From: a virus
Length of the DNA: 64,000 bases
Strand: one strand, 5' to 3'
IMG/VR virus record: IMGVR_UViG_3300045988_174992
A program made the position numbers and the translations under genes. The notes under the pieces were generated by a model, which did no database searches, was not told the DNA's origin, and worked only from the letters and a program-made list of their open reading frames with translations. Positions 1,778-60,645 of this stretch are shown one piece after another; the stretch's first letter is position 1, and the number at the start of each line of letters is the position of its first letter.

Positions 1778-2587
1778 ATGATAAGTTTAAAAGAATATAT
1801 AGAAAGTCATAACAACTTACACAATAAGTTGTTCTGTCAAAATAGATTGAATGAGCTAGCTACTTATTTTGGTGAATCTATAGAAGACATACCAAAAGAT
1901 ATACAAGAATCATACATTAATCATACATTTGAACTTAATTCTTATCTATATGAGACATTAAAATCTCATGATGTAGATAGTTTGATTAATCATATAGAAA
2001 AAGAATATAAAGACAATATATATGAGATTTGCCCTATAAATAGATCTAATAAACATGGATTAGTAGGTGTAAAGTTCAACAACAAACAATTATATTATGT
2101 TAATTCAAGTAAGTTCTTGGATATATGTACATTCTTCAATTATGTGAAAACTGATACATGGAATGGATATACTATTTTAGAACCTGAATATCCTGATAAA
2201 TGTAATAATGAAACAATGAAATTGTTTAAGAACAAATTCATACATGTTACTACTAAGAAAAATTATGAAAAGATAAAGGTTACTGGACTTAGAATGAGAG
2301 GTTACGATGGAAAGGATGGATACAGAAAATATAGTTCTAGAATACAATTAAAAGGAAAAGAAAGTAAAGAAAGTATATTGAAATTTGCTAGAGAGTTTAA
2401 GCAAGCAAGAAAAGAATCAGATGATGAGAATCATTTAGATTGGGAAAATACAATAGTGTTGTTAGTAGACTTGTATACTGTAAACTTTGATATCTGGAGA
2501 GATCACATGTATGATAAAGAAGATCATTGTTATTTTGTAAAGAATAACATACCTGCTAAATATATAAAGAAATTATACGAAATTTAA
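1778..2587 (+). CDS. hypothetical protein
   Basis: 269-aa ORF tightly packed in the plus-strand block. No motif recognised. Confidence 0.6.
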   Translation: MISLKEYIESHNNLHNKLFCQNRLNELATYFGESIEDIPKDIQESYINHTFELNSYLYETLKSHDVDSLINHIEKEYKDNIYEICPINRSNKHGLVGVKFNNKQLYYVNSSKFLDICTFFNYVKTDTWNGYTILEPEYPDKCNNETMKLFKNKFIHVTTKKNYEKIKVTGLRMRGYDGKDGYRKYSSRIQLKGKESKESILKFAREFKQARKESDDENHLDWENTIVLLVDLYTVNFDIWRDHMYDKEDHCYFVKNNIPAKYIKKLYEI

Positions 2588-3149: not shown

Positions 3150-3511
3150 ATGAAGAATTTATCTAATTTCATATTAGAATCATTAAATAAAATGATTATA
3201 AGAAAATTTCAGATAAGATCATCAAGCAATTTAACATATCTTCTGTAAATGACAAAGGTTTTGTAGATGATTATGTAGAATATGTTGGAGACAATCTTAT
3301 CAGTAATGGAGAATGGCAAGATATTGATGATGATTTTGACAATTTTGTTGAAGAGATAATTAATGACATTAAGAAAGATGGAAATGATTCTGAATATGAT
3401 AAGTTCTCTGATTCCAATGACTACACATCAGAAGAATTCATAAAATCCAATAAGACTAATTTCTTGGATATATTTAGAAGCATTTATAACGGCTTTAAGA
3501 GTTTTGCATAG
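3150..3511 (+). pseudogene. frameshifted (or recoded) member of the MKxLxx[FY]-leader protein family
   Basis: ATG 3150 gives MKNLSNFILESLNK..., then TAA at 3246..3248. The -1 frame is open 3191..3511 (106 codons) with no usable start, and a terminator follows directly. Confidence 0.45.
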
Positions 3512-4788: not shown

Positions 4789-5991
4789 TTATTTAATTCT
4801 ATATTTAGCACCTATGATAGCATTAGCTGCAGCAAATGAACCAGTCATCTTCATCATTCTATCTTTCCAAGTGAATACAATACCTTCTGTAGAATTCAAC
4901 TTGTTTCCAAGTTTTTGAAGTCTTAACAATTGATCCTTAAGCTTATCTTTGTCTTCTTGAGTACCTTTCTCATCAACAAGCTTCTTAGTGGCTTCTATCT
5001 CATTCTTCAAATTGATTATTGCTTTGTCTTTGACTCCATCATTAATCAAACCAGATGTAAGTTCAATTACTTTATTTGACATATCTAAGAACAGGTCATC
5101 AATTGGTTCGATAACATCTTTAACATATTTCTTATAATCTTTCTTATCTATAGAAACAATTTCATCAGCATGTTCAGGGTAGCTCTTCTTCAATATTCTT
5201 ATATTTACACTCTTATCTGAATTGAACCATCGGTTGAAGAATGCATCCTTTTCAGTCATCCATTCTGGTGCTATAATTTCAAAACGTTTCTTTTTCCAAT
5301 CTTCTATAGTAGCATCTTTTCCTAAACCTTCAGATTTGAATAAGTCAATAACTTTCTTTTTATATTCATTAGCAAACTTATTGCTGTCTTTAGTAACTTG
5401 AATAATTATATTAGGTGTAAGCTTGGCTTTGTCATCCTTTTCTATAGCCTTTTGAATAATACCAAGTCCATCTTTGGTAACACTATCCTTTTTCCATTCA
5501 TCACCTTCTTTCTTATATACCCAAATATTATGGAAGTCAACCTGATCATCATCATAATACATGATATTAGTAGTACCTGATACTATACATTCACAGTTTA
5601 CTAACAATCTTGTATTAGGATCAGGATTGAAGAATTTGCTACCAATTCTTTTGAATATCTTTTCAAGTGTATTACCAGCAGATACAAATGCTTTTTGAAC
5701 GGTTGGTTTGTCTTTCCATTTTTCAATCATATCTTGGATAGTCATACCTCCACGTTCTGAATTCAAGTCACCTTTGTTTCTTATAAAAACTACTTCATCC
5801 TGATTATTCATAGATGCTTGTATGTTAGTACCATCTAATTTCTCTGTAGCATTAGATATCTTACCTCCAAACAAATCATCTATCAAATCAAGTAAATCTT
5901 GGCAGGTGAAGTCAGTTTCATCAATTACATGCATCATGTGACCACTAGCTCCACCTTCAAAGATTTGTACATATTGAGTTAAATTAATCAT
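4789..5991 (-). CDS. nucleotidyltransferase-superfamily ligase-like protein (RNA/DNA ligase candidate) with CTS-like leader
   Basis: TEKLDGTN looks like the KxDG adenylylation motif I. C-terminal EGIVF..MKMTG looks like motifs IV/V. N-terminus is MINLTQYVQIFE|GG. Confidence 0.45.
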   Translation of the reverse strand: MINLTQYVQIFEGGASGHMMHVIDETDFTCQDLLDLIDDLFGGKISNATEKLDGTNIQASMNNQDEVVFIRNKGDLNSERGGMTIQDMIEKWKDKPTVQKAFVSAGNTLEKIFKRIGSKFFNPDPNTRLLVNCECIVSGTTNIMYYDDDQVDFHNIWVYKKEGDEWKKDSVTKDGLGIIQKAIEKDDKAKLTPNIIIQVTKDSNKFANEYKKKVIDLFKSEGLGKDATIEDWKKKRFEIIAPEWMTEKDAFFNRWFNSDKSVNIRILKKSYPEHADEIVSIDKKDYKKYVKDVIEPIDDLFLDMSNKVIELTSGLINDGVKDKAIINLKNEIEATKKLVDEKGTQEDKDKLKDQLLRLQKLGNKLNSTEGIVFTWKDRMMKMTGSFAAANAIIGAKYRIK

Positions 5992-7538
5992 TTCTTAGAT
6001 TTGTTGTGTTTTAATTTTATAGACAAACTAGCATTTAATGGATTAGGAATAGATAATCCACCAACATCAAATGTCCATTTACTTACACCAGAGCTTACAA
6101 CTTCTAGAATCATTTTATTCTTTCTGATTCCAAAGTATACTTGTTTCATATCTACTGCTTTATGAATAATTGATGAAATAACATCCTCATTTTCAGACCC
6201 GTATTCTTCATTTATTTCTTTTATGCATATAGCCCATAATGGATATATAAAGAAACCATATTTAAGCTTAGGTTGATTTTCAGTATTAATTTTATCCCAA
6301 TCATACTTATTCAATAAATGAGATGTATCATTGTATCCTATTGCTTTGTATACTTCTTCAAAAAATTCTTTTGGGTTATCACCAACTATAGAATCTAAAA
6401 TTTCATTTATTTTAGAAAAATCTACTTTTGAATGCTTTTCATTTGCAAGATTTTTAAATTTCTTAAATGCTTCATTATTAGAAAGATATTTATCTACAAC
6501 ATATTTCTGTATTAGTGAATTTTTTTGATCGAATACAGACATACTATATGAGATAGCAATATTATTGATAAACTCTATTTCTTTATAGTCATACATTGCT
6601 TTTTTCTCTTTCTTATTCATCTGATCTTTTTCTTTCTTAAGATCATCAAGTTCATTTTCAACATTCTTTTTTAAGTTTGCAACAGTTTTAAGCATCAAAT
6701 CTTTACCAGCTGGTTTACCACCACCACCAAGTTGTTTAGCAGATACTTTATAACCATTAATATAGTAATCTATCAAAGGTTCATTAGAAACTGTAGGAAA
6801 AACTACCTTACAATCATTAAACAATCTAAAGAACAGGAATGGACCTAAAATTTCACCAAAGTCCTTTTCAATACAAGCAATGTCACCATTTTCTATGGGT
6901 TCAATATATTTCTTAATACTTGATAAATCTAATTCAATTCTGCCTTCAGAAGAAGTGTTGAAGAAATCATCTACAGTTCCTTCTTTAAATGATCCTTCTC
7001 TCTTTAAACTTCCATCATTCAATATATCAATTAACTTATCACAACATTTAACTATTTCTGGATGTTTTTCTTTTAATGAAGCTAAACCTCTATTTACCGC
7101 ATCCTTTAATTGTTTTCTATTATCAAAAGTATTTGATGATTCTGTTAGAACAAGAACTTTGTCAGGAGACAAATCTTTATTATGTAAAGTTTGTTTATCT
7201 TGTGTCTTATTAGCCACATAATAAACTTCATCGTTATAAGTAATTTTATAAGATTTATAAGTACCAGATGCTCCTTTTGATCTACCTACTACTTCAGAAT
7301 CATCATCTGATATAGATACACCTCTTGTGTCTTTAAATGCATCTTTCAAAAATTCTTTATTGGCATCTTCATCTGTACCCATTTCAAAACGCCCAACCTC
7401 CATAGGATCTTTATCCGCTGTTTTAAAATCAATATTATGTGAAACACAATATTTCTTTAAAATAGCTCTAAGATACGACTTATCTTTATTCGAAGACTTT
7501 CCTTCAAATATATCTACATAGTTTTCTAATGACTGCAT
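5988..7538 (-). CDS. hypothetical 516-aa protein with CTS-like leader
   Basis: N-terminus MQSLENYVDIFE|GK. 4-nt overlap with the downstream gene. GGGGKPAGK loop. No family recognised. Confidence 0.7.
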   Translation of the reverse strand: MQSLENYVDIFEGKSSNKDKSYLRAILKKYCVSHNIDFKTADKDPMEVGRFEMGTDEDANKEFLKDAFKDTRGVSISDDDSEVVGRSKGASGTYKSYKITYNDEVYYVANKTQDKQTLHNKDLSPDKVLVLTESSNTFDNRKQLKDAVNRGLASLKEKHPEIVKCCDKLIDILNDGSLKREGSFKEGTVDDFFNTSSEGRIELDLSSIKKYIEPIENGDIACIEKDFGEILGPFLFFRLFNDCKVVFPTVSNEPLIDYYINGYKVSAKQLGGGGKPAGKDLMLKTVANLKKNVENELDDLKKEKDQMNKKEKKAMYDYKEIEFINNIAISYSMSVFDQKNSLIQKYVVDKYLSNNEAFKKFKNLANEKHSKVDFSKINEILDSIVGDNPKEFFEEVYKAIGYNDTSHLLNKYDWDKINTENQPKLKYGFFIYPLWAICIKEINEEYGSENEDVISSIIHKAVDMKQVYFGIRKNKMILEVVSSGVSKWTFDVGGLSIPNPLNASLSIKLKHNKSKK

Positions 7539-8607: not shown

Positions 8608-9015
8608 TTAAAAATCTGGATTTGTACGTATACTGAATGATAGCGATTGAACTGGCATACTATCAGCTGGAATTCCCATGGTCTTTGCAAGTTCTTTGTT
8701 TAATTCTAGACAAGAATTCCATTGATTCTTATCTATTTCCTTTCTTCTATCAATATCCTTTTGCTTATATTCCTGACCGGTTTCATCATACATCCTGCAT
8801 AATGCATCATAGAATTTGTCAATTTCTTCTTTCTTAGAAATTTCACAACGATACATATAGTCAAAATATTTCTTATAGTTCTTCTGCCTCTTTATAGGAA
8901 ATGCCGCAGAAATAGTAAAATCAGTAAAATACTTATTGATAATCTCTCTATTCTTTGATATTTGGGCATTAGAATCAAATCCTGCTTCAGTAATATATTC
9001 AGTTAAGTTTTTCAT
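8608..9015 (-). CDS. hypothetical protein with CTS-like leader
   Basis: N-terminus MKNLTEYITE|AGF. 135 aa. Confidence 0.65.
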   Translation of the reverse strand: MKNLTEYITEAGFDSNAQISKNREIINKYFTDFTISAAFPIKRQKNYKKYFDYMYRCEISKKEEIDKFYDALCRMYDETGQEYKQKDIDRRKEIDKNQWNSCLELNKELAKTMGIPADSMPVQSLSFSIRTNPDF

Positions 9016-12263: not shown

Positions 12264-12272
12264 ATTTTTAAC

Positions 12273-12636: not shown

Positions 12637-12640
12637 TAGA

Positions 12641-17803: not shown

Positions 17804-17812
17804 CTTTTTATA

Positions 17813-20169: not shown

Positions 20170-20196
20170 CTTTTATTTCCTGTTAACTTTAGTTAA

Positions 20197-22628: not shown

Positions 22629-22657
22629 AATATAGAACAATCTTTCAGGATTTCAAA
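22629..22657 (-). promoter_or_regulatory. phage promoter, TTTGAAAT / TTCTATATT class
   Basis: Reverse complement reads TTTGAAAT-N12-TTCTATATT. Confidence 0.6.
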
Positions 22658-22671
22658 ATATATTCAAAAAT

Positions 22672-25224: not shown

Positions 25225-25253
25225 AATATAGAACAAAACATGTTTTTTTCAAA
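25225..25253 (-). promoter_or_regulatory. phage promoter, TTTGAAAT / TTCTATATT class
   Basis: Reverse complement reads TTTGAAAA-N12-TTCTATATT. Confidence 0.55.
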
Positions 25254-25273
25254 ATATATTCAAAAAAATTTCA

Positions 25274-26965: not shown

Positions 26966-26996
26966 ATTAAAAAGAGATGCTTGTTTTAAGCATCTC
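26966..26996 (-). terminator. rho-independent terminator
   Basis: GAGATGCTT / AAGCATCTC hairpin around the polymerase stop codon, with a T-run on the minus strand. Confidence 0.6.
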
Positions 26997-29854: not shown

Positions 29855-29883
29855 AATATAGAAAAGCTTCAAAAAATTTCAAA
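29855..29883 (-). promoter_or_regulatory. phage promoter, TTTGAAAT / TTCTATATT class
   Basis: Reverse complement reads TTTGAAAT-N12-TTCTATATTAT. Confidence 0.6.
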
Positions 29884-29903
29884 CTATTTATATAAAACTA
29901 TTT

Positions 29904-35965: not shown

Positions 35966-36250
35966 ATGGCAAATACAACATTTCCTATTCATAAACTATT
36001 TAGAGTATATGAAACATTAGACCAGTTTGATGCAGAAGCAAATCACCCAGAAAATAAGATATGCTTCATCAAAGATAAGAGAATAATCTATGCTAATGGG
36101 GTTGAATATACCAATGAGCAGATGTATAATGATAATATAACTGATGATATCAAAGATGCTGCTAAATTCAAGACTGTTTATAATGCATTATTAGATGAAC
36201 TGAAGAACAGAAACTATATGGAGTTATCCAAAGATGGTGAAAATATTTAA
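35966..36250 (+). CDS. stand-alone fibre N-terminal adaptor module
   Basis: 94 aa. LFRVYETLDQFDAEANHPENKICFIKDKRIIYANGVEY matches the N-termini of the three LRR fibre genes but lacks an LRR part. Confidence 0.5.
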   Translation: MANTTFPIHKLFRVYETLDQFDAEANHPENKICFIKDKRIIYANGVEYTNEQMYNDNITDDIKDAAKFKTVYNALLDELKNRNYMELSKDGENI

Positions 36251-37433
36251 AAACTATGATACATTATCCCAATTCAATGATGAATCTATACACCCAGAAA
36301 ACAAGATATGTTTGATAAAAGATAAAGGTGTAATATATTCAAATGGTGTACAGTATTCACATTCTAAAATGCATATAATACAAGATATTGGAGATTCAGA
36401 TAACATAGTAGATAAGTTTAATGAATTGAGAAAAGGTTTATTAGAATCAAATCTAATGGCAGCTAGGACACCACATACTCTCATTTACTGGACAGGAGAT
36501 TCTAATACTATAGATATTAGTGGTACTACATATACAGCTGAACCAGATAAAGTAAACATAGATGGGGTAGAATACTACCAGTTAAAATTAGATAAAGATT
36601 TAAATAATAGTTTTAGTAATAATACTTTTACTAATTTAATATTTAAAGATGTTGATACAAGTAATGTTACTAATATGAATAATATGTTCGGTTATTGCAA
36701 TGCTCTTACTTCTTTGTATGTGTCTGAATTTGATACAAGTAATGTTACTAATATGGCTAATATGTTTTATTATTGCGAGGCTCTTACTTCTTTAGATGTA
36801 TCTAAATTTGATACAAGTAATGTTACTAATATGTTTAATATGTTTGGTAGATGCTGTGCTCTTACTTCTTTAGATGTATCTAAATTTGATACAAGTAAAG
36901 TTACTAATATGAGTAATATGTTCAATAATTGCAGTTCTCTTACTTCTTTGGATGTATCTAAATGGGATACAAGTAAAGTTACTGGTATGTATAGTATGTT
37001 TAATTATTGCATATCTATTACTTCTTTAGATGTATCTAAATTTGATACTAGTAAAGTTACTGATATGTCTAGTATGTTTCAACATTGCAGATTACTTACT
37101 TCTTTTGATGTGTCAAATTTTAATACAAGTAATGTTACTAATATGAATACTATGTTCTCTTCTTGCAGTGCTCTTACTTCTTTGGACGTATCTGGGTGGG
37201 ATACAAGTAATGTTATTTATATGGGTTATATGTTCAGGAATTGCTGGGCTCTTACTTCTTTGGACATATCTGGATGGGATACAAGTAATGTTACTAATAT
37301 GAATAGTATATTCTCTGGTTGCAGTTCTCTTAAAACAATAAGAATGGTAGGTTGTTCACAGACTACTATAGATAAGATAAAAGCACAACTATCTACAGAT
37401 GGTATAACTGGATGTACTATTGTAACAGAATAA
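36234..37433 (+). CDS. BspA/DUF285-type leucine-rich-repeat fibre (receptor-binding) protein, paralog 1
   Basis: About 10 repeats of F..C..LTSLDVS.FDTS.VTNM..MF. Conserved N-terminal module and a C-terminal module ending LKTIRMVGCSQTTIDKIKAQLSTDGITGCTIVTE. Confidence 0.7.
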   Translation: MVKIFKNYDTLSQFNDESIHPENKICLIKDKGVIYSNGVQYSHSKMHIIQDIGDSDNIVDKFNELRKGLLESNLMAARTPHTLIYWTGDSNTIDISGTTYTAEPDKVNIDGVEYYQLKLDKDLNNSFSNNTFTNLIFKDVDTSNVTNMNNMFGYCNALTSLYVSEFDTSNVTNMANMFYYCEALTSLDVSKFDTSNVTNMFNMFGRCCALTSLDVSKFDTSKVTNMSNMFNNCSSLTSLDVSKWDTSKVTGMYSMFNYCISITSLDVSKFDTSKVTDMSSMFQHCRLLTSFDVSNFNTSNVTNMNTMFSSCSALTSLDVSGWDTSNVIYMGYMFRNCWALTSLDISGWDTSNVTNMNSIFSGCSSLKTIRMVGCSQTTIDKIKAQLSTDGITGCTIVTE

Positions 37434-37470: not shown

Positions 37471-38217
37471 ATGGCTAAATTATTTAGAAATTACAATACA
37501 TTGGTGGAATATGAAGCAGACACAAATAAACCTGTAAACACAGTTTGTTTCATTAAAGATGCAAAGGTCATCTATGTAGATGGCATACGATATTCATATA
37601 AGCAACTTGACTATCTACCACCTGCTATTAATGAAGCAGAAGCATTAGAATATATGGGTAAGATTATTAAGAATGCCCAGGAAGTAGGATTGATTGGTAT
37701 ACCAGTACCTAAACTAGTACCTGGTATATACTGGACAGGAGATTCTAATATTATAAGTATTAGTGGTACAGATTATACAGCTGAATCTGATAATATAACT
37801 ATAGATGGTGTAGAATACTATCAGTTAAAATTGGATAAAGATTTAGATAATGATTTTTACAACTTTAATTATAATTATTTTACTAATTTAATATTTAAAG
37901 ATGTTGATACAAGTAATGTTACTAATATGAGTAATATGTTCGAAGGTTGTTGGGATCTTACTTCTTTGGATGTTAGTAATTTTGATACAAGTAATGTTAC
38001 TGATATAGGATTTATGTTTAGTGATTGTGGTTCTCTTACTTCTTTAGATATGTCTGGATGGGATATAAGTAACGCCATCAAAATGAACAAAATGCTCACT
38101 GGTTGTAGTGCTCTTAAAACTATCAGAATGGTAGGTTGTTCACAGACTACTATAGATAAGATAAAAGCACAATTATCTACTGATGGTATAACTGGTTGCA
38201 CTATTGTAACAGAATAA
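37471..38217 (+). CDS. BspA/DUF285-type LRR fibre protein, paralog 2
   Basis: Same N- and C-terminal modules, with about 3 LRR units. Confidence 0.7.
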   Translation: MAKLFRNYNTLVEYEADTNKPVNTVCFIKDAKVIYVDGIRYSYKQLDYLPPAINEAEALEYMGKIIKNAQEVGLIGIPVPKLVPGIYWTGDSNIISISGTDYTAESDNITIDGVEYYQLKLDKDLDNDFYNFNYNYFTNLIFKDVDTSNVTNMSNMFEGCWDLTSLDVSNFDTSNVTDIGFMFSDCGSLTSLDMSGWDISNAIKMNKMLTGCSALKTIRMVGCSQTTIDKIKAQLSTDGITGCTIVTE

Positions 38218-38250: not shown

Positions 38251-39225
38251 ATGCCGAAAATATTTAGAAACTACAATACATTATCTCAATTCAATACTGA
38301 ATCCACACATCCAGAAAACAAGATATGTTTCATTAAAGATAATGGAGTAATATATTCAAATGGTGTACAGTATTCACCTTATAAAATGGACACTATAGCT
38401 AATATAGAAGATTCAGATAACATAGTAGATAAGTTTAATGAATTGAGAAAAGGTTTATTAGAATCAAATCTAATGGAAGCTAGAACACTACATACTGTCA
38501 TATACTGGACTGGAGATTCTAATACTATAAACATTAGTGGTACTACATATACAGCTGAACTAGATAAAATAAATATAGATGGTGTAGTATACTATCAGTT
38601 AAAATTGTATAAAGATTTAGATAATAATTTTTATAAATTTAGTAATAATACTTTTGCTAATTTAATATTTAAAGATGTTGATACAAGTAAAGTAACTAAT
38701 ATGAATAATATGTTCCATTATTGCAATGCTCTTACTTCTTTGGATGTATCTAAATTTGATACTAGTAAAGTTACTAACATGTCATGGATGTTTGAATATT
38801 GCATGTCTCTTACTTCTTTAGATTTGAGTACATGGGATACTAGTAAGGTTACTAATATGAATGCTATGTTCCTTTATTGTAGTGCTCTTACTTCTTTGGA
38901 TTTGAGTGGATTTGATACTAGTAAAGTTACTGATATGAGTTTTATGTTCAGTAATTGCAGTTCTCTTACTTCTTTGGATTTGAGTGGATTTGATACTAGT
39001 AAAGTTACTGATATGAGTTTTATGTTCAGTAATTGCAGTTCTCTTACTTCTTTGGATTTGAGTGGATGGGATACAAGTAATGTTAATAATATGCGTAATA
39101 TGTTCAGTGGTTGTAGTGCTCTTAAAACAATCAGAATGGTAGGTTGTTTGCAGACTACTATAGATAAGATAAAAGCACAACTATCTAGTAATGGTATAAC
39201 TGGATGCACTATTGTAACAGAATAA
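38251..39225 (+). CDS. BspA/DUF285-type LRR fibre protein, paralog 3
   Basis: Same modules, about 6 LRR units including a perfect 78-bp tandem duplication. Confidence 0.7.
   Translation: MPKIFRNYNTLSQFNTESTHPENKICFIKDNGVIYSNGVQYSPYKMDTIANIEDSDNIVDKFNELRKGLLESNLMEARTLHTVIYWTGDSNTINISGTTYTAELDKINIDGVVYYQLKLYKDLDNNFYKFSNNTFANLIFKDVDTSKVTNMNNMFHYCNALTSLDVSKFDTSKVTNMSWMFEYCMSLTSLDLSTWDTSKVTNMNAMFLYCSALTSLDLSGFDTSKVTDMSFMFSNCSSLTSLDLSGFDTSKVTDMSFMFSNCSSLTSLDLSGWDTSNVNNMRNMFSGCSALKTIRMVGCLQTTIDKIKAQLSSNGITGCTIVTE
38887..39042 (+). repeat. perfect 2 x 78-bp tandem duplication (one LRR unit)
   Basis: 38887..38964 and 38965..39042 read identically, each encoding LTSLDLSGFDTSKVTDMSFMFSNCSS. Confidence 0.85.
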
Positions 39226-40348: not shown

Positions 40349-40879
40349 TTATCCTAAGTTAACTCTATTTGATGTACCAATCTTGTTTACATAGATTTCA
40401 ATGTAAGTCATTCTACGGTTAGTACCGAAATCACCACCTTCATCCATGTTGTTGATGTAGACTAATTCATCTTTCATACCATTGATAAAGAACATTTCTC
40501 TCAAGGTTGAACCAGTCATTACATTATCATCATATTCTTCTGAATCACCATCCAAAATCATATAACCATTCTTTCTTGCGATATTATCTAAGTAAGTGAA
40601 ACCTACATAGTCACCACCTTCATCACCATAATTCAATGAAATTTTCCATTCATTCAAATTAGAGTTATGCAATATTGAAATGATATCTTTGATAGTGAAA
40701 CAAGAATCATCTTCTTTAATCACAAGAACAGTGTCATAATTCTTGTGGTTTACAATCTTAACTCCAAATGAAGTATTGTATTTATCATTAACATTCTCAA
40801 TATTGCTCTTGATAATTTCAGCTTTTGTCATAACTTCTGTTCTTAATATCACCGAAGTGATGTTATTAATCATAATCAT
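40349..40879 (-). CDS. hypothetical promoter-proximal protein
   Basis: Starts ATGATTATGATTAAT after promoter 40897..40925. Confidence 0.6.
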   Translation of the reverse strand: MIMINNITSVILRTEVMTKAEIIKSNIENVNDKYNTSFGVKIVNHKNYDTVLVIKEDDSCFTIKDIISILHNSNLNEWKISLNYGDEGGDYVGFTYLDNIARKNGYMILDGDSEEYDDNVMTGSTLREMFFINGMKDELVYINNMDEGGDFGTNRRMTYIEIYVNKIGTSNRVNLG

Positions 40880-40896: not shown

Positions 40897-40925
40897 AATA
40901 TAGAAAAAAGCCTTAATTTTTCAAA
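40897..40925 (-). promoter_or_regulatory. phage promoter, TTTGAAAT / TTCTATATT class
   Basis: Reverse complement reads TTTGAAAA-N12-TTCTATATTAT. Overlaps the stop of 40913..41152. Confidence 0.5.
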
Positions 40926-41152
40926 TTTTTCCTAAAATTTTTCAATTTATTTTTATTGTAATACTTTAGTATCTGATAAAATGCATACAATCCACCAACA
41001 AAACATAAGAAGATTATAATAGGGATCCAAAGTGGTGCAGTTACCCACCACCAAGACCAATCAATAACATTAGTCAACTTAAGTACAAGAAATACCAAGA
41101 ACAAGACACTTGAAAAGGATAATCCACTTGTATAATTGCTATTATTTTCCAT
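40913..41152 (-). CDS. small two-helix membrane protein
   Basis: 79 aa with two hydrophobic segments and a basic tail. Confidence 0.55.
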   Translation of the reverse strand: MENNSNYTSGLSFSSVLFLVFLVLKLTNVIDWSWWWVTAPLWIPIIIFLCFVGGLYAFYQILKYYNKNKLKNFRKNLKN

Positions 41153-42708: not shown

Positions 42709-43347
42709 TTATTTGTCTTTAATAAGTTCACTCTTATTGTTATCAAAAACCATATCTTTTTCTTCAATTTCCAACTTTATTTTATCATCCATATATTTTA
42801 CAATATTGCTTGATCTAGTTCTCTTGAAGATATCCCATAAGTCATATAGCAATCCATCATCTGATGTGTTTGTAACATCAAATTCTGACCAATCAACAAT
42901 GAACCTTAGATTTTCCAATGCATAATTCTTAAGATCATCTTGTTCACCTTTAAAGTTGTCATCTAATGATTTGTCAAAGCCAAATGTACAATGCAATCCA
43001 TCTTTTGCATCTTCTTTCTTTTCAAACTCAAATCTAGAATCTATAATATTATCAGCATTAGCACCAAAATATTCTTTAGCTAAATCATCATCAGATGGCA
43101 TGCTTTCAAGAAGCAAATCAGATATATATTGATTGATATCATCATCTGTATAGTCTTCTGGTACTTCTATTACAAAAATACCTTTTCGGTTTTCTGGATC
43201 TTTCACCTTCCAAATAGCTTCAAAGTCATTCAATCTGATAGTCTGATCTCTATCTTCATTTAGAGCAAAAGGAGAGTTCGTTGCCAAGCTCTCCTTCATA
43301 TATTCTACTAACTGTTTCATAGTTTTATCCAATTCTAATTTGTTCAT
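42709..43347 (-). CDS. hypothetical acidic protein
   Basis: 212-aa ORF. Confidence 0.6.
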   Translation of the reverse strand: MNKLELDKTMKQLVEYMKESLATNSPFALNEDRDQTIRLNDFEAIWKVKDPENRKGIFVIEVPEDYTDDDINQYISDLLLESMPSDDDLAKEYFGANADNIIDSRFEFEKKEDAKDGLHCTFGFDKSLDDNFKGEQDDLKNYALENLRFIVDWSEFDVTNTSDDGLLYDLWDIFKRTRSSNIVKYMDDKIKLEIEEKDMVFDNNKSELIKDK

Positions 43348-43634
43348 GATAATGGTCCTTCATGACCTTTCATTCTGCCATTTTTCTTCAAACAAGCATC
43401 AAATACTTTTGATGAACTTGCTTTTGATTTAGCAGATTCCCAATCTTCTCTATTTACAAATATAGATTCAGGATATTTCTTGTAATCTGTATACCATCTT
43501 ATATCATATTTATCTACAAGTCTCCATACATCTATCATCTCATTGAGTTCAAGAACATTTTCATTATCTGTAGGATCCATTTTTGTAGGAGCATCACATT
43601 TCTTCTCCAACAGCATACATACTAAACTTCTCAT
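43344..43634 (-). CDS. hypothetical protein
   Basis: 96-aa ORF with a 4-nt overlap with the downstream gene. Confidence 0.55.
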   Translation of the reverse strand: MRSLVCMLLEKKCDAPTKMDPTDNENVLELNEMIDVWRLVDKYDIRWYTDYKKYPESIFVNREDWESAKSKASSSKVFDACLKKNGRMKGHEGPLS

Positions 43635-44321
43635 TTATAAATCTTTATGGTTTGGATTCATTGCCTTACAGATAGCATTGATAGCAGCTTTATCATCTTC
43701 TGATAAATACTTTAAGCAATCATCATCATGTCTACCACCTTTTTCTTGCATCAAATATACTGGAATGAAATTATCTGTATCTATAATATAGAAAAATTCC
43801 ACACGACCCGTATTAGTAAATAATTCTACAAAAGTAAATGGCTTCTTTGCTTCTAAATCATTTATCTTTTCAGCTATTCTACTGAATTTATTTGATATCT
43901 TTCTCCAATTACCTTCTGATATGATAGATTGTCGTAAGAAGATTTGTCTATCTCCACTTTTATTGGATGCAACATAAACATTAGAGAAGAATTCCAAATC
44001 ATCATTTTGTATTTCAAGAGCTGTACCTCTGCTAAGATCTCTCAAAATTGCACCACCTCTCCAATTCTTAGCTAATGCTTTAAGTCTAACAATAGATTTC
44101 TTATCGACATTATAGTAGATGTTGAATTTCTTTTCTTCATCATCTGGATTTTCGTTCATCAATTCTTTATCAATATTATCTTTAAATGCCTGCAAGAACT
44201 TTTCTGCTCGAGGATCTCCAAGTTTCTTTGCTTTCTTAGCAGCATTCAAATATGTTTCACCTTTCAATTCAAAAACATATTCATCAAGTTTTTCGTTTGG
44301 ATATTCCGAAATGCTAATCAT
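43635..44321 (-). CDS. hypothetical protein (weak CTS-like leader)
   Basis: MISISEYPNEKLDEYVFE|LKG. 228 aa. Confidence 0.6.
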   Translation of the reverse strand: MISISEYPNEKLDEYVFELKGETYLNAAKKAKKLGDPRAEKFLQAFKDNIDKELMNENPDDEEKKFNIYYNVDKKSIVRLKALAKNWRGGAILRDLSRGTALEIQNDDLEFFSNVYVASNKSGDRQIFLRQSIISEGNWRKISNKFSRIAEKINDLEAKKPFTFVELFTNTGRVEFFYIIDTDNFIPVYLMQEKGGRHDDDCLKYLSEDDKAAINAICKAMNPNHKDL

Positions 44322-44622
44322 TTTTTCCTTTATTTAATGCATTTATAGTGTCTATAATTTTCTTAAGAATATAGATATTGTCATAGTTGTCTGGTAATCC
44401 TTTTGCATCATCATTCATCATATCAGTCAATGCATTGAAGTTGATTCCACTGTCATCTACCAGTTTCTTGAAACCTTCTATATCTTTCTGGTTTGGTGCT
44501 TCTTTCATGAATGCGTCTAATGAAGATAATTCTATTCCTTTAGACCAATTGTCAAATTTCCATTGAATGTTGTCACCATCCAATTCTTCTTTCATGACTA
44601 CATAGCTCTTAAGATTAATCAT
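44314..44622 (-). CDS. hypothetical protein (weak CTS-like leader)
   Basis: MINLKSYVVMKEE. 102 aa. Confidence 0.55.
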   Translation of the reverse strand: MINLKSYVVMKEELDGDNIQWKFDNWSKGIELSSLDAFMKEAPNQKDIEGFKKLVDDSGINFNALTDMMNDDAKGLPDNYDNIYILKKIIDTINALNKGKND

Positions 44623-44990
44623 CGCTTTTTACCAGTATTTTTGAACCAATCATACAACTGTTCTGCAAAGTCAACTTTTTTAAAATTGAATGCAACCTTC
44701 ATAGTATCATAACTAGAATCATGAATTTCTATATACAGATATTCTTTTCCACTTATTGTTTCTGTATGAGCATCAAATGAAATTTCTTTGCTTTGACTTG
44801 AAGTGATCCAATCTTCTTTATTAGGACCACCATCACTGTACATATTCAGATTAGATACTAATTCTGATATGGCTTTGCTTTTTGACAACTTGGATAATTC
44901 TATATACTTGTCAATGAATTGCTTGAGAGTAATCTTCATTGTATATCTTTCAATGCTACTCTCAAGCAAATATTCAGATAAACTTTTCAT
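44619..44990 (-). CDS. hypothetical protein with CTS-like leader
   Basis: MKSLSEYLLE|SSI. 123 aa. Confidence 0.65.
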   Translation of the reverse strand: MKSLSEYLLESSIERYTMKITLKQFIDKYIELSKLSKSKAISELVSNLNMYSDGGPNKEDWITSSQSKEISFDAHTETISGKEYLYIEIHDSSYDTMKVAFNFKKVDFAEQLYDWFKNTGKKR

Positions 44991-44991
44991 C

Positions 44992-45372
44992 TTACTTACA
45001 ATTCTTTATGAATTTCTTAGCAGCTGATGTCAATCCAATTTTCTCTATCTTGAATGTAAACCAATCTTTATCATCTACTTTCTTGAAGTATATGAATAAT
45101 GAAATGAAGCTACCAAAGTTGTCCTCATACTTGAATTCAAACTTTTCATTCAAATTCTTCTTAATATATTCTACCATCTGTTCAGGTTTCTTGAACTTTG
45201 GATTACCATCATTGAATTCAAAAGTATCAGATGCAATAGAGCTTACAAGATTGTCTACTGTCAACTTCTTTGAATCTTTCTTTATTAAAGCATCAAGAAA
45301 ATCTTGCATTGTTGAAATGCAAGAATATTCTTTTGCTTTAGATTCTGAAATATATTCTGTTAATGATTTCAT
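44992..45372 (-). CDS. hypothetical protein with CTS-like leader
   Basis: MKSLTEYISE|SKA. 126 aa. Confidence 0.65.
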   Translation of the reverse strand: MKSLTEYISESKAKEYSCISTMQDFLDALIKKDSKKLTVDNLVSSIASDTFEFNDGNPKFKKPEQMVEYIKKNLNEKFEFKYEDNFGSFISLFIYFKKVDDKDWFTFKIEKIGLTSAAKKFIKNCK

Positions 45373-45378
45373 AATATT

Positions 45379-46578
45379 TTACTCACGATATGCAGTATCA
45401 TTGTCATTTATACGAAATACTGATGGATCTGCATTTCTCTGATCTTCATCATTCAAACACTCTTTATAGAGAGAATACAACTCAGCAAATGCTTTATTCA
45501 ACTCTGGAGTATTCTTAATGTACTGAAGAACTTTGAAATTAGAATTAGTAACTTCTGATGGATTCTTCATACCATACTTAGCCATAATCTGCTTTGCTTT
45601 AAGCTTTTCATGACCAAACAATCCATTCATACTATAGAATACATCAAGCTGCTTTTCAGTAAATTTCTTCTCAAGCATCTTAACAATCATCTTCCAAAGC
45701 TTAGCAATATCTTGCTGGTCGAGTGAAGCATCTGCATCTTCTTTAGAGTCAACCTTATCAAAGATTCCCTTGCCTTCATCTCCACCACCAATAGGTGATT
45801 CACCGGATACTGAAGTCTGCTTTGTATTTCTACCTGTATCTTTACGTTCCTTATTCTGAACAGAAACTGGAATACGTACTAAGTGTGAAGTATTCTTGAT
45901 ATTTTCAAGGATTACAATGCGAATCAAATAGCTAGCATAACTCAAGAAAGTGAATGCCTTACGCTTCTTCATTTCATCTTTCAATTCTCCAGCCATCTCT
46001 TCTGCTTCAGCATTCTTTCCTCCACGCTTCTTAGCAGTCTCTTCAGAAGACTTACCATATTGGTTCATTGCAATTGTAAGACCTTCCATACCGAAAGCAA
46101 ACAAATCGTCAAGAGAGAAGCTAGACTTTCCATTGAATCCACGAGCAATCTTCCAAACCAATGGAGTATACTTCTTAGCTACAGCATCACGACCCTTCTT
46201 AGTCTTCAAATCAAGCAATATCTCATCTGGTGAAATCTCATTCTTGATAATTGCGTTGAATTGCTCTTCAGTCTGAAATACTGGTACTTCAAGAAGACGG
46301 TGAGCCTTAGCAAGTGTTCCAATCCACTTGTACAATTCCTGCAACTTAGGATCTTTTGGTTTACCCTTACCATAGAAATTTTGCAATGAGCCAAGCTCCT
46401 TCATATATGTAGCATTGTTTACAATCAACCAATTGATGATTTCTTTAGCCTCAACAGAAATGAACTTGTCTGCTGTAGTAAGATATGTCTTAAGCTTAGC
46501 AGATGGAATGAAATCCAAAGTATCATTCTGTACATCAAGTGACTTAGCTTCTGCAACAAATTCTGATAATTTCTTCAT
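45379..46578 (-). CDS. sigma-70-family protein with CTS-like leader
   Basis: MKKLSEFVAE|AKS. Region-2-like LVWKIARGF..DDLFAFGMEGLTIAMNQYG. SYASYLIRIVILENI..HLVRIPVSV. Region-4-like C-terminus QLDVFYSMNGLFGHEKLKAKQIMAKYGM. Confidence 0.65.
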   Translation of the reverse strand: MKKLSEFVAEAKSLDVQNDTLDFIPSAKLKTYLTTADKFISVEAKEIINWLIVNNATYMKELGSLQNFYGKGKPKDPKLQELYKWIGTLAKAHRLLEVPVFQTEEQFNAIIKNEISPDEILLDLKTKKGRDAVAKKYTPLVWKIARGFNGKSSFSLDDLFAFGMEGLTIAMNQYGKSSEETAKKRGGKNAEAEEMAGELKDEMKKRKAFTFLSYASYLIRIVILENIKNTSHLVRIPVSVQNKERKDTGRNTKQTSVSGESPIGGGDEGKGIFDKVDSKEDADASLDQQDIAKLWKMIVKMLEKKFTEKQLDVFYSMNGLFGHEKLKAKQIMAKYGMKNPSEVTNSNFKVLQYIKNTPELNKAFAELYSLYKECLNDEDQRNADPSVFRINDNDTAYRE

Positions 46579-46708
46579 ATTTTCTTGAACTTTTTAAGTT
46601 TGAATTTCTAAATTTAATTTTTGTTCTTAAAGAACTAAAAGTGATGTTATTATTTCAAACAGGTCTTGAAATATATCAAGTACATGTTCTATTTTATATA
46701 ACGAGATG

Positions 46709-46737
46709 AATATAGAACAATAGGATAAAATTTCAAA
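46709..46737 (-). promoter_or_regulatory. phage promoter, TTTGAAAT / TTCTATATT class
   Basis: Reverse complement reads TTTGAAAT-N12-TTCTATATT, about 130 nt upstream of the start of 45379..46578. Confidence 0.55.
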
Positions 46738-46805
46738 CAAAATATGAAAAATTTTATTTTTTAATTGCCTAATTCACCTATTAGATAAAAATAGAGAAAT
46801 TTATA

Positions 46806-50459: not shown

Positions 50460-50705
50460 ATGAAAAAATTAAGTGAATTGGTAAATGAAAAGCTATCTGA
50501 TATAGAAGGTAAATGGGATCCACCAGAAGGATTGTTTGCAAAGAACAATCCTAGAGAGATAGCTCAAATACTTTTAGATGCTTCAGATTCAGAAGGTCAA
50601 GCAATGAAAAGACTTGTATTCTATATGAACAGAGCAGGAGAAGATTGTCCTAATAAAACAGTTTTGAATAAAGTAAAAGATATATTGAGAAGCAATACAA
50701 AATGA
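50460..50705 (+). CDS. hypothetical protein with CTS-like leader
   Basis: MKKLSELVNE|KLS. 81 aa. Confidence 0.6.
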   Translation: MKKLSELVNEKLSDIEGKWDPPEGLFAKNNPREIAQILLDASDSEGQAMKRLVFYMNRAGEDCPNKTVLNKVKDILRSNTK

Positions 50706-51573: not shown

Positions 51574-51822
51574 TTATTTCATCAAATCAATAAGGTACTT
51601 CTTAGCTTCCTTATGAGTGATTTCATTAATATCAACATCACCAACAATGTCAATAACACCTCTAAGATCATTTCTGAATGTTTCTACAGTATATTCTTTC
51701 TTAGGATCTGAGTACTCATCATAAAATCCAAGCTTCTGCTTAGGATCCATACCTGCTAATCTGTTATATGCTTGAGAAAGCTTTATTGATTTTCCTTCAA
51801 GAATTTCTACTAATGTCTTCAT
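51574..51822 (-). CDS. hypothetical protein with CTS-like leader
   Basis: MKTLVEILE|GKS. 82 aa. Confidence 0.55.
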   Translation of the reverse strand: MKTLVEILEGKSIKLSQAYNRLAGMDPKQKLGFYDEYSDPKKEYTVETFRNDLRGVIDIVGDVDINEITHKEAKKYLIDLMK

Positions 51823-52152: not shown

Positions 52153-52545
52153 TTAGTCTTCTGGTTCATCAAGAGTATCAGTTCCAAGAATGTAATCTGT
52201 AGAACTCAGAACTAAGGCACAATACTTCATAATGTCATAGTCATGATGATTCTTATCTAATACATCTACTAACTGATTTAAGAAAACTTTCTGATTAGTG
52301 ATATATTCAAACAATGTATCTGCGATATCAAGATACTGTGGAGTGTTCTCCTCTTTGTAGCCCATGTTTACATAAGACTTATAGATCTTACAAACAATCT
52401 CATAAACTACACTCTTGAGAGCTTCATTTGTCAAGTTCTTCATGTTGTGCTCTAACTGGTTGTGTACCTGTAAGAAACGGAATGCGATAGAAGTTGGAGC
52501 ACTCAAGTTGAAATTGTTTACTGTATTTGAATTCATCATAATCAT
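52153..52545 (-). CDS. hypothetical promoter-proximal protein
   Basis: Starts ATGATTATGATG after the tandem promoters. Confidence 0.6.
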   Translation of the reverse strand: MIMMNSNTVNNFNLSAPTSIAFRFLQVHNQLEHNMKNLTNEALKSVVYEIVCKIYKSYVNMGYKEENTPQYLDIADTLFEYITNQKVFLNQLVDVLDKNHHDYDIMKYCALVLSSTDYILGTDTLDEPED

Positions 52546-52581: not shown

Positions 52582-52610
52582 AATATAGAAAAGTTGAATT
52601 AAAATTCAAA
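52582..52610 (-). promoter_or_regulatory. phage promoter (proximal of a tandem pair)
   Basis: Reverse complement reads TTTGAATT-N12-TTCTATATT. Confidence 0.5.
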
Positions 52611-52637
52611 CTTTTATTTCCTGTTAACTTTAGTTAA

Positions 52638-53249: not shown

Positions 53250-53278
53250 AATATAGAACAATTTTTAAAAATTTCAAA
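53250..53278 (-). promoter_or_regulatory. phage promoter, TTTGAAAT / TTCTATATT class
   Basis: Reverse complement reads TTTGAAAT-N12-TTCTATATT. Confidence 0.6.
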
Positions 53279-53305
53279 TAAATATCATTTTAGAATACAA
53301 AAAAT

Positions 53306-53800: not shown

Positions 53801-54421
53801 ATGAGAATGTTAGGTTGTAAAGCATCAAAGATAGATGCTCATGATAAGAAGATCACCAAGAATTTGACTAATAAGATTCCTGATGAATATAGCTTTGTAA
53901 ATTATCTTAGTCCAATAACAGATCAAGGTTCAACAAACATGTGTGTCACCCATGCTCTTGCATGCTTTTTGAATTGGATTACTGATATGAAGTTGAAGAC
54001 TTCAAGGAAAGACAACAATATTGATTTGAAACAGATATATAATGCAAGATCAGATAAGGATCATGATAATGGCATGTCTATCAAAGAAGCATTGTCATTG
54101 GCAAGAACACATGGTATAAAATCAAATGTTGGAACTATAAAAATCCATGACTTTGCAATGATAGGAAGTGAACAAATCTTGAAGCAAGCAATATTATGCA
54201 ATGGTCCAGTATTGATAGCGTTACCAGTATATGACAGTTCAAGAAATGATTTTTGGAACGGAGCAGAATTAGAAGGAGGTCATTGTGTTGCTGTTGTTGG
54301 ATATGATAAGAATGGTTTTATTATAAGAAACAGCTGGGGTAGAAGTTATGGAAGAAATGGATATTGGACTTTACCTTATACTGAATTCAATAAGATAAAG
54401 GAGATTTGGACATGCATATAA
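53801..54421 (+). CDS. papain-family (C1) cysteine peptidase
   Basis: QGSTNMC (Gln six residues before the catalytic Cys, as in papain), GGHCVAVVGYD (His), IIRNSWG..GYW (Asn-Ser-Trp). Confidence 0.8.
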   Translation: MRMLGCKASKIDAHDKKITKNLTNKIPDEYSFVNYLSPITDQGSTNMCVTHALACFLNWITDMKLKTSRKDNNIDLKQIYNARSDKDHDNGMSIKEALSLARTHGIKSNVGTIKIHDFAMIGSEQILKQAILCNGPVLIALPVYDSSRNDFWNGAELEGGHCVAVVGYDKNGFIIRNSWGRSYGRNGYWTLPYTEFNKIKEIWTCI

Positions 54422-55486: not shown

Positions 55487-57127
55487 TTATGCACTTGCAC
55501 TTCCTTGCATATCTATTATCTTTCTAGCTGTATCATTTATCATAAGATGTTGGCTTGTAGGATACTGTTGCAGTAATTCTGATACATTATCTATATAAGA
55601 ATCAAAAAGCTTGAAGTTAGTAACTGTACCTGGTATACCATTTATCATTACATCTTGCTTTTCATCTTCTACCATTTCTACATTCCATTTTGCTACTTTA
55701 TGTGCTGTCAAATTATTCAAGTCAAACTTGTAATGTGCTGGTTGCAACTTATATAGAGGGATATTTTCATTATAAGAATATTCCGAAACTCCTAATTCTA
55801 CTACATTCCTAGATTTAGACCATCTTAAATATATGAAATAATGATTGTCAGTAATATTGGCATCTTGTTTAGGTAAGTATACAGAACAATCTTCTACATT
55901 ATCTAAACTTACTTTGATTCTTCTGTTTGTCATTTTCAATCTAAGTATGATATGACCTATCTTTATGAGTTCAGAATCATAATCATACATTCCATTCAAA
56001 CCAACAATAATGCTTGTACTACCTTCTTCACCACAATATTTTCTTTGATATACTATCTTATTCTTAAGTCTGTATAGTGATGATGGATCAAACTTGTAAC
56101 ATCTGTCACTTATCAATGTTCCTCTTTGATAGATATTTGTATCTACAAAGTTTGTACCTTCTGATGTAACATACTTTCGGCAAGAATCGGATTCATATAC
56201 AGGGTACATGCCATTTCCAGAATATGTTGGAGCTTCTGTTGTTTCTTCTCCACTATCTAATCCTTCTTTATCTCCAAACAAATCTTCATACTTTGTCTTT
56301 ACTAAGCTATCTATAGTAGAATCAAAATCTCCTAAGTCAACAGAACCCTTTTCTTGATATTTTACTAATGCCAATTTGAATGTAGTATTGTTCCACATCA
56401 ATGAACCATTCTTCTCTTCGTATGCTTCATTTACCATCCACATCCTTTTCATCATTGGAATATATATCAAATCACCTTCCATTGGCTGTGCAGTAATTCC
56501 AAAAGCCGTAGCAAACATTGTCTTGCTTATCTCGGTTTCCCAATCAGTTTGCCAATCTAATCCAAAATCAGAAAATTCTGGTTTGCTGCTTGGCATCTGA
56601 CCTTCATTTACTATAAGCTTTATCTGCTTTACTGATTCTACATTCATGAGAGTATACTCTTTAAACGTGATATCTTTAGAACCAGAATCAGGCTTAAGTT
56701 TGAAGTAGTATATAGGTATACCAATCATACAAGCAACGCTATCAGATAATGATTGCTGCAAAGCTATAGCTGAAGTAAGACCAGCATAAGGATTGTATTT
56801 GTTAGATGATTCACAAGATGGTGATGAGATGCTTGAAGCAATAGAAGTAGTATAGTCTACACTTTCATCACCATCTTTTACATCATTAACAACACCATTT
56901 ACTTTAAACTTTATGTAGAAATCAGATGGACTATCAACCAGTATTTTTTCTGCATCACCATAGGAAGCAAAACATGACCAATTGATACCATCATAACTCC
57001 ACGATACCTCTAAGCATGATGTATCATATTTTACATCATCACAACCAAGTATAGATATTGATGACATATCATTAATAGCCATTGTCAACAATACCTCTTG
57101 AGCAGGCATACAACTATTGAAATCCAT
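55487..57127 (-). CDS. large hypothetical protein, probable virion/baseplate component
   Basis: 546-aa ORF directly downstream of the cell-wall hydrolase gene. Assigned from context only. Confidence 0.4.
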   Translation of the reverse strand: MDFNSCMPAQEVLLTMAINDMSSISILGCDDVKYDTSCLEVSWSYDGINWSCFASYGDAEKILVDSPSDFYIKFKVNGVVNDVKDGDESVDYTTSIASSISSPSCESSNKYNPYAGLTSAIALQQSLSDSVACMIGIPIYYFKLKPDSGSKDITFKEYTLMNVESVKQIKLIVNEGQMPSSKPEFSDFGLDWQTDWETEISKTMFATAFGITAQPMEGDLIYIPMMKRMWMVNEAYEEKNGSLMWNNTTFKLALVKYQEKGSVDLGDFDSTIDSLVKTKYEDLFGDKEGLDSGEETTEAPTYSGNGMYPVYESDSCRKYVTSEGTNFVDTNIYQRGTLISDRCYKFDPSSLYRLKNKIVYQRKYCGEEGSTSIIVGLNGMYDYDSELIKIGHIILRLKMTNRRIKVSLDNVEDCSVYLPKQDANITDNHYFIYLRWSKSRNVVELGVSEYSYNENIPLYKLQPAHYKFDLNNLTAHKVAKWNVEMVEDEKQDVMINGIPGTVTNFKLFDSYIDNVSELLQQYPTSQHLMINDTARKIIDMQGSASA

Positions 57128-60614: not shown

Positions 60615-60645
60615 AATATAGAAATAATGGTTAACGCATTTCATC
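60615..60645 (-). promoter_or_regulatory. possible weak promoter
   Basis: Good -10 (TTCTATATT) but a poor -35 (ATGAAAT) at N14. Confidence 0.3.

Follow-up and report, generated by a model that had tools for sequence, protein, structure and literature searches.

The closest described counterpart of the element reported here is the capsid-targeting sequence (CTS) of phage T4, a leader in which positions 4 and 7 determine targeting and positions 8 and 10 processing, the prohead protease gp21 cutting after L/I-x-E (PMC9026906). On the T4 genome (NC_000866) ipII and ipIII start with MKTYQEFIAE then A, ipI with MKTFKEF...ITE then A, gp24 with MAKINELLRE then S and gp22 with MLKEQLIAE then A, and the ipI-III and alt genes lie on the minus strand, away from the gene 20-24 head cluster. 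T4 produces its internal proteins abundantly at both early and late times (PMC6071114); one of them, IPIII, has a cytoplasmic function (PMC9391042), and T-even internal-protein loci vary in gene content (PMC3012670). A second point of comparison is Sphingomonas phage PAU, whose gp23-family major capsid protein (MCP) was found by N-terminal sequencing to be processed from 585 to 520 aa, with about 65 residues lost (PMC5646251). Our search of the literature returned no description of the leader outside T-even phages. Here we describe a similar decapeptide that opens otherwise unrelated predicted genes in a 64,000-nt stretch of viral DNA (IMG/VR record IMGVR_UViG_3300045988_174992; the whole stretch is called the window below). 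We argue that it is probably a T4-type capsid-targeting propeptide, a reading that draws on homologous machinery, a corresponding signal, a modular leader and an annotated relative.

A leader shared by unrelated proteins

The window is part of ENA contig ERZ919512 k127_125124, a 276,731-bp assembly from a human gut metagenome, and many samples contain contigs of 245-295 kb that are nearly identical to it. Calling genes by a greedy longest-ORF rule gave 94 window genes (92% coding). That the leader is shared far beyond chance was confirmed: the core L-x-[EQN]-[YFLI]-[IVL] stands at residue 4 in 9 of the 94 genes, against 0.13 expected from its frequency anywhere in the window proteins (binomial p 1.6e-14). 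The full motif, including E then [ASG], occurs 10 times in 19,447 residues, 8 times at residue 4; of the other two occurrences one lies at an alternative start (ORF 42709-43347) and the last is genuinely internal. At P1', directly after the final Glu, 12 of 13 leaders have A/S/G, compared with a background of 16% (p 3e-9). The leaders are 9, 10, 12 or 13 residues long and keep the hydrophobic-x-E end throughout. An [LIV]-x-E end had been proposed for every leader; P3 is indeed I/V/L with Glu at P1 in 11 of 13, the remaining two, MISLKEYIE and MKQLVEYMKE, having Tyr and Met at that position. By these predicted N-termini the leader is placed on at least 13-16 unrelated proteins of a gut jumbo phage of about 277 kb. 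The genes are as follows, with the leader and the residue that follows it.

45379..46578, minus strand: sigma-70-family factor, 399 aa; MKKLSEFVAE then A; first gene of the leader cassette
44992..45372, minus strand: 126-aa protein; MKSLTEYISE then S; replaced by other ORFs in some strains
44619..44990, minus strand: 123-aa protein; MKSLSEYLLE then S
44314..44622, minus strand: 102-aa protein; weak 12-residue leader-like start MINLKSYVVMKE then E
43635..44321, minus strand: 228-aa protein; degenerate leader-like start MISISEYPNE then K; doubtful
43344..43634, minus strand: 96-aa protein; leader-like start MRSLVCMLLE then K
42709..43320, minus strand: 203-aa protein; MKQLVEYMKE then S
8608..9015, minus strand: 135-aa protein; MKNLTEYITE then A
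5988..7538, minus strand: 516-aa protein; 12-residue leader MQSLENYVDIFE then G
4789..5991, minus strand: putative Rnl1-like RNA ligase, 400 aa; 12-residue leader MINLTQYVQIFE then GGASGH
1778..2587, plus strand: 269-aa protein beside ThyX; 9-residue MISLKEYIE then S
3150..3511, plus strand: broken leader gene; MKNLSNFILE then S; a 32-codon ORF (3150-3248), then another frame
50460..50705, plus strand: DUF3175 protein, 81 aa; MKKLSELVNE then K
51574..51822, minus strand: 82-aa protein; 9-residue MKTLVEILE then G
just right of the window: 170-aa ORF; MKSLTNYIYE then S
just right of the window: nucleoside diphosphate kinase (NDK); MKSLTNYICE then A

All coordinates and N-termini given in an initial annotation of the window proved correct, and the genes at 43344..43634, 42709..43320 and 1778..2587 are additions to it. 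Seven consecutive genes, from 46578 down to 42709, bear the leader or a weakened copy. Two of these had been listed as weaker matches: the start at 44314..44622 stands as weakly leader-like, and that at 43635..44321 is doubtful because of the Pro at P3. The leader of 42709..43320 begins at a Met inside the longest ORF (42709-43347), and it is this Met that other strains use as their start. In 3150..3511 the frame changes within TAAATAAAATGATTATAAGAAAA; candidate explanations are a pseudogene, an assembly error and (programmed) frameshifting. Most leader proteins had no family in the Pfam, PHROGs and NCBIfam searches, and PDB sequence searches with the 400-aa and 516-aa proteins returned nothing useful. 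The annotation's view that this is a shared leader and not a paralog family held up, as the protein bodies, compared all-vs-all by BLASTP minus their first 14 residues, gave only E>0.04.

Searching for orthologues of the sigma factor gave 228 matches, and in the 120 inspected, down to 42% identity, nearly all carry the leader, either as M[KR]K[LIF]S[QE]..xE[AGS]K or in a 9-residue form such as MKKLSQLNE then AK. Across these orthologues and the window leaders the conserved columns are L4, [YFLI]7, [IVL]8 and E10. An alignment of 62 sigma sequences yields 2.87 bits per column for the leader versus 2.82 for the body, with E10 at 90% and L4 at 81%. Position 7 varies conservatively among Y/F/L and position 8 among I/V/L, and strain variants of 44619..44990, MKSLYEYLLE and MKSLSEYINTLLE, retain L4, E6, Y7 and L-x-E before S, the latter despite an insertion (MKSLSEYINTLLE then SS). 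Conservative substitutions, indels that preserve the end and conservation in distant orthologues together argue that selection acts on the peptide. The same conclusion had earlier been drawn from the use of TCA and AGT for Ser3 in neighbouring genes, an argument that is weak because position 3 is variable.

Head genes of the same phage and its relatives

A T4-type signal calls for a gp21-type protease and a scaffold, and the initial annotation had proposed looking for both elsewhere in the genome. The head module was reached by aligning PAU-type capsid proteins against IMG/VR, and lies on contigs 3300045988_167932, _174340 and _172530. These are 91-96% identical to the window in nucleotide sequence, and on them the first 32 nt of the sigma-leader gene recur without a mismatch, or the adjoining 1172-aa protein recurs at 93-96% identity. 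They encode a 606-aa MCP of the Gp23 family (Pfam E 1.2e-31) and, directly upstream of it, a 525-aa protein (8097-9674 of L160, IMGVR_UViG_3300045988_174340). The first ~190 residues of the latter are a Peptidase_S77 domain, the T4 gp21 family (E 6.9e-11, 42.4 bits against a curated cutoff of 27), and it is 44% identical to the PAU maturation protease gp151. Its C-terminal region of about 330 residues consists of some ten tandem 12-residue repeats VQKWIVEQYSPE, each with an I-V-E (W-I-V-E) site. From its repeats this region looks like a scaffold degraded at hydrophobic-x-Glu sites, so that the protein would be a protease-scaffold fusion; in PAU the two are separate genes. The sought protease has thus been found, with a scaffold-like domain joined to it, and its occurrence in contigs this similar to the window places it in the phage at the level of the species.

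The wider affinities of the phage agree with this machinery. The window helicase is UvsW-like, the Pfam Phage_T4_gp13 neck protein lies just beyond the window edge with gp13/gp14-like neck proteins in the phage, and 55487-57127 has a weak T4 neck-protein match. A 773-aa protein at 60631-62952 has relatives only in the following: Tenacibaculum phages pT24, PTm1 and PTm5, PAU, Chryseobacterium and Flavobacterium jumbo phages, the Lak megaphages of Prevotella, and an uncultured 462-kb phage. Based on the helicase, the T4-type neck proteins and the 773-aa relatives, the phage is assigned as a distant member of the T4 superfamily, within a jumbo-phage group that mostly infects Bacteroidota, and the host is probably a member of Bacteroidota. 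Neither megablast of 20 kb nor tblastn of the sigma factor matched any GenBank phage, and the latter search accordingly gave no PAU homologue of the leader sigma.

PAU is the annotated relative. In the first 200 kb of its genome (JQ362498) 18 ORFs start MK[ST][LI]..L[YF]E, including gp152, annotated as the scaffolding protein (MKTLTQLYE then A), and gp142, gp154 and gp199, annotated as internal capsid proteins. Since several leader ORFs lack a capsid annotation and gp70, which is annotated as an internal capsid protein, has no leader, the label was probably not derived from the leader. In the PAU MCP the Glu site nearest the processing point is L-M-E64. On other IMG/VR contigs with a PAU-type MCP (L168, L169, L172 and L182 are examples), leader genes form clusters on the strand of the MCP, no more than 10 kb upstream of it, as found with a loose regular expression that also catches a few clamp-loader N-termini as false positives.

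A scan of related phages for the leader, as the annotation had suggested, was carried out on IMG/VR with the back-translated DNA pattern ATGAARNNNTTANNNGAATWYNTNNNNGAR, and matched gene starts in many viral contigs (at least 120 loci), several of which are also in the list of contigs with a PAU-type MCP. Among the matches listed, 86 of 128 coincide with the initial ATG of ORFs that are 50 codons or longer. P1', which the pattern leaves unspecified, is A/S/G in 59 of these 86 gene starts, the corresponding figures being 6 of 26 for internal matches and 1 of 16 for matches in short ORFs; the Ser count at P1' is inflated by one recurrent family of about 190 aa. Members of that family (~185-200 aa, starting MK[ST]LKEYLxESKKTYxFK) are found widely in marine-type viral contigs with a GC content of 36-38% (L042, L053, L061, L063 and others). 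The family is homologous to PA5oct EST35_0202 (126689-127291), a virion protein by ESI-MS/MS that is encoded in the structural module and has a degenerate leader (MKSFRDYYDA), and also matches Atu_ph07 and Phosso proteins.

Predicted cargo, promoters and alternative readings

If the decapeptide is a T4-type propeptide, it would form an amphipathic N-terminal helix (Leu4, Tyr/Phe7, Ile/Val/Leu8) that binds the scaffolding core of the assembling prohead, by which the tagged protein would be enclosed. The gp21-family protease would then cut after the hydrophobic-x-Glu that ends the leader, ahead of a small residue, and the mature protein would remain in the DNA-filled head and enter the next host cell with the DNA. 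Core binding, cleavage, packaging and injection are all steps that we infer from sequence.

What would be packaged in this way is unusual. The sigma factor matches PHROG 351 (E 1.5e-11), with weak NCBIfam matches and Pfam Sigma70_r2 in some orthologues. A profile of the 62 orthologues matches RpoS/SigA structures in regions 2 and 4 (E 1e-8), residues 135-237 corresponding to region 2.1-2.4 and residues 254-350 to region 4. In its AlphaFold2 (AF2) model the leader is a low-confidence N-terminal helix (pLDDT ~47 for residues 1-10). The gene content downstream of it is strain-dependent, like the T4 internal-protein loci, and a second sigma-like gene at 13458-14567 has no leader. The NDK is matched by Pfam NDK over residues 19-136 (E 1.7e-17) and by NDKs in the PDB (E 9e-14). 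In alignments, residue ~9-13 of solved NDKs falls opposite residue ~18-20 of the phage protein, which is therefore a complete NDK plus an N-terminal extension of 10-11 residues. For the putative RNA ligase at 4789-5991 the Pfam RNA_ligase match is below cutoff, PF09414 is recorded in orthologues, and K51-x-D53-G54, the KxDG nucleotidyltransferase motif, is invariant in the family. Its AF2 model (pLDDT 89, pTM 0.84) gives residues 1-18 a pLDDT below 50, with a short helix at 4-11 detached from the fold. The top Foldseek matches are T4 Rnl1 and archaeal RNA ligases, at weak scores (E 2e-3, TM ~0.2). The family retains the leader, and two leaderless homologues begin MEGGASGH, exactly at the predicted cleavage point.

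It is possible, and we hold it with somewhat less than even confidence, that a sigma-70 factor, an NDK, an RNA ligase and variable small effectors are packaged and injected together across a large Bacteroidota-type jumbo-phage clade. Were the sigma factor in the virion, host RNA polymerase would be reprogrammed by a pre-made phage sigma from the start of infection; we know of no described virion-delivered sigma factor. Of the host-takeover and anti-defence functions first suggested for the set, an anti-defence role is plausible for part of the cargo only.

The promoter of the sigma cassette also bears on the reading. A strongly conserved promoter-like motif TTTGAAAT-N17-CTATATT-N6-G lies at 46695..46740 (minus strand), 137 nt upstream of the sigma ATG, and an extended element TTTGAAAT-N17-(T)TCTATATT-N6-G-T-W-A-A is found 20-140 nt upstream of non-structural operons. 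By k-mer enrichment CTATATT is present in 25 upstream regions against 3.3 expected, corresponding to about 25 non-structural operons on the minus strand. Example sites are:

46709-46740, 53250-53281, 52582-52613, 40897-40928, 29855-29886, 25225-25256, minus strand: promoter element
22629-22660, 20141-20172, 17775-17806, 12608-12639, 10585-10616, minus strand: promoter element

This class does not occur upstream of the MCP, protease or fibre genes. It fits the Bacteroidota consensus, -33 TTTG / -7 TAnnTTTG, and for that reason the motifs are probably early promoters of the host polymerase. A reading as an E. coli-type -35/-10 element, which the phage sigma might require, was considered and rejected, as TTTG-N19-TAnnTT matches the Bacteroidota consensus instead. 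No late-promoter motif common to structural and leader genes was found by eye, the TTTG...CTATATT class being the sole strong motif.

A second recurrent N-terminus, MIM(I/M)(N/T)N, occurs in first genes after the promoter element:

17403-17756, 19761-20105, 22220-22576, 24383-25180, 40349-40879, 52153-52545, minus strand: genes starting MIM(I/M)(N/T)N

Because ATGATTATGATTAA looks conserved at the nucleotide level, it may represent a 5' leader or a region for initiation, not a signal in the protein.

Several observations weigh against a capsid-targeting role. The leader genes in the window lie outside the head module, and the sigma cassette sits behind a host-type promoter common to non-structural operons. 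The protease and MCP were read from conspecific contigs and not from the window's own contig. Sigma factor and NDK have an obvious cytoplasmic role during replication, and the initial annotation had itself counted the leader's appearance on proteins acting in the cytoplasm against its proposal. That point is formally touched, because the sigma factor, NDK and RNA ligase carry the leader in operons with host-type promoters. Internal [LIV]-x-E-[ASG] sites in the cargo bodies number 3 versus 6.6 expected, a depletion that is not significant. The PAU label of internal capsid protein has a basis neither stated in the record nor traceable to a paper. A more serious difficulty is that in five nucleotidyltransferase-ligase fusions (P0262, P0269, P0270, P0277 and P0282) the N-terminus is untagged and a leader-like peptide is internal, SLRDYLLE then A ... 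YIIE then GGAGGH, joining a cytidylyltransferase-like domain (a homologue of window 7542-8150) to an RNA-ligase-like one. A signal that targets from the N-terminus only does not account for this arrangement; perhaps the peptide serves there as a linker that can be cleaved, or is left over from the fusion of two genes. The objection from cytoplasmic action loses force because T4 internal proteins are also made early, IPIII acts in the cytoplasm and Alt is a packaged enzyme. An early host-type promoter is likewise compatible with packaging, and in T4, too, the ipI-III and alt genes stand apart from the head cluster.

A rival reading is that the leader is a tag with no connection to the capsid, recruiting enzymes to a cytoplasmic multi-enzyme or replication-transcription complex, or a pro-sequence whose removal in the cytoplasm times enzyme activity. 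Pro-sigma E/K is a model for such a pro-sequence. The nature of the cargo (sigma factor, NDK and RNA ligase, with one leader gene adjoining ThyX), the promoter class of the sigma cassette and the internal linker of the ligase fusions all fit it. A different protease might then remove the leader, and the window does hold a gene for a papain-family cysteine peptidase at 53801-54421 (plus strand, opposite to its neighbours; Pfam Peptidase_C1 4.7e-10). That enzyme is an unlikely leader peptidase, however, since the end of the leader fits S77/gp21 specificity and not papain-type cleavage, which has its hydrophobic residue at P2. In addition, no such tagging system is known, the PAU leader type stands on scaffolding and annotated internal capsid proteins in the head module, and T4 internal proteins are likewise early and cytoplasm-acting. 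We therefore give a non-capsid tag only a small chance. A mixed case has a similarly small one: the leader would be a true capsid signal on the small variable proteins and inherited or vestigial on sigma, NDK and ligase, with few or no copies packaged and the enzymes mainly intracellular. Head copy number is limited, the enzymes are needed in bulk in the cytoplasm, and relatives do have leaderless and fusion forms of the ligase. Yet the leader of the sigma factor is as conserved as its catalytic body, E10 included, its persistence in orthologues down to 42% identity argues against a vestige, and the ligase family keeps it too.

It should also be considered whether the motif is a protein signal at all, and not the product of a nucleotide or translation-initiation constraint in an AT-rich, Bacteroidota-type system, or simply a favoured N-terminal helix. 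The upstream regions of the window genes are A-rich and without Shine-Dalgarno sequences, 19 of the 94 genes start with MK, and the second recurrent start, MIM(I/M)NN, does resemble a nucleotide-level element right after the promoter motif. The leader behaves differently: it is present on only ~10-15% of genes, its changes conserve amino-acid character (Y/F/L, I/V/L), its indels spare the hydrophobic-x-E and the small residue after it, and it is conserved in orthologues at 42% protein identity. It is also found in other phages of different GC content, and in the IMG/VR scan the unspecified P1' is small only in gene-start matches, among the matches listed. Such a constraint is thus very improbable as the explanation, and a T4-type capsid-targeting propeptide continues to be the reading that we prefer.

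Neighbouring genes and comparison with known systems

Other genes of the phage were noted in the course of this work. An IS605 OrfB/TnpB-type gene at 30844-32058 (plus strand; Pfam OrfB_IS605 6e-25, Cas12f1-like TNB domain 4e-15) stands at the start of the fibre cluster, and a near-identical copy adjoins the head module in another strain (L160:299-1513), which indicates mobility of the element among phages of this population. The gene for the family-B DNA polymerase is broken into separate ORFs (window 26986-28278 and 28281-29348; L014:189-1742), with an HNH/homing-endonuclease gene directly beside an ORF with a polymerase domain, and additional HNH-like genes break up the head module in some strains (L160:5322-6521 and 11624-12625). 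Tandem paralogous DUF285/leucine-rich-repeat fibre-like proteins at 36234-37433, 37471-38217 and 38251-39225 (plus strand), and also 35966-36250, share the N-terminus M-x-K-[IL]-F-[KR]-N-Y-[DN]-T-L; their number and length are strongly strain-dependent, as expected for a host-range cassette. RNA-repair genes include RtcB at 22672-23979 and, in L016, an RNA ligase plus a HAD 'Swiss Army Knife' domain. About 30 kb right of the window lie genes for a DnaJ homologue and a C-terminal fragment of DnaK (L028:19008-20892, IMGVR_UViG_3300045988_170375). Two steps rightward of the window in IMG/VR reached fibre-like proteins, RNA-repair genes and DnaK/DnaJ, and no head genes.

If the capsid-targeting reading is true, the rule M-K-x-L-x-E-[YF]-[ILV]-x-E plus a small residue would list the head-carried, injected proteins of abundant uncultured gut jumbo phages, and that list would be a catalogue of first-minute takeover and counter-defence proteins. 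A packaged sigma factor would be a new phage route to seizing transcription, and the T4 capsid-targeting mechanism would be ancient and widespread in the T4 superfamily. The leader could also serve as a ready-made tag to load foreign proteins into Bacteroidota phages. What makes the case more than routine is how many proteins are tagged and what they are, above all a sigma factor that keeps its tag across a large metagenomic clade.

Among giant phages the phiKZ-like group (phiKZ, 201phi2-1 and SPN3US) offers a parallel, in that many head-internal proteins undergo cleavage after Glu, by a protease related to gp21, and are passed on to the host, the packaged set including transcription machinery in the form of a virion RNA polymerase. 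The differences are clear. Their propeptides are long and without a shared decapeptide, their S80 protease acts at S/A-x-E so that P3 is small there and hydrophobic here, and what they package is a complete RNA polymerase rather than a sigma factor. PAU is closer and belongs to the same clade: the 773-aa protein is common to both, the MCP is 37-38% identical and the protease shares the identity given above, and the PAU leader stands on at least 18 ORFs with an L-x-E end before A/S/N/D/G. Unlike here, the PAU leader is 9 residues long and most PAU leader genes are inside the head module.

The likeness to the T4 system (IPI/IPII/IPIII, Alt, gp67 and gp68, with gp21) extends to most of its parts. 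In both, a leader of about ten residues stands on otherwise unrelated proteins; as the initial annotation had stated and NC_000866 verified, the sigma leader is identical to that of ipII/ipIII at 6 of 10 residues, with Ala next in both. The conserved positions 4, 7, 8 and 10 are those that govern targeting and processing in T4, a correspondence in the pattern of conservation alone. Leaders end in L/I/V-x-E, both phages have an S77 protease and a gp23-family MCP, and the tagged genes are scattered among non-structural genes in a set that varies between strains. The phage described here differs in having Leu at position 4 where T4 has Tyr/Phe, in tagging at least 13-16 proteins against about 6, in a predicted cargo with a sigma factor, an NDK and a putative RNA ligase among its members, in a protease fused to a repeat-rich scaffold-like domain, and in a host that is probably of the Bacteroidota. 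Being homologous to the T4 CTS/gp21 system, it would be a new member of that system, and not a new mechanism.

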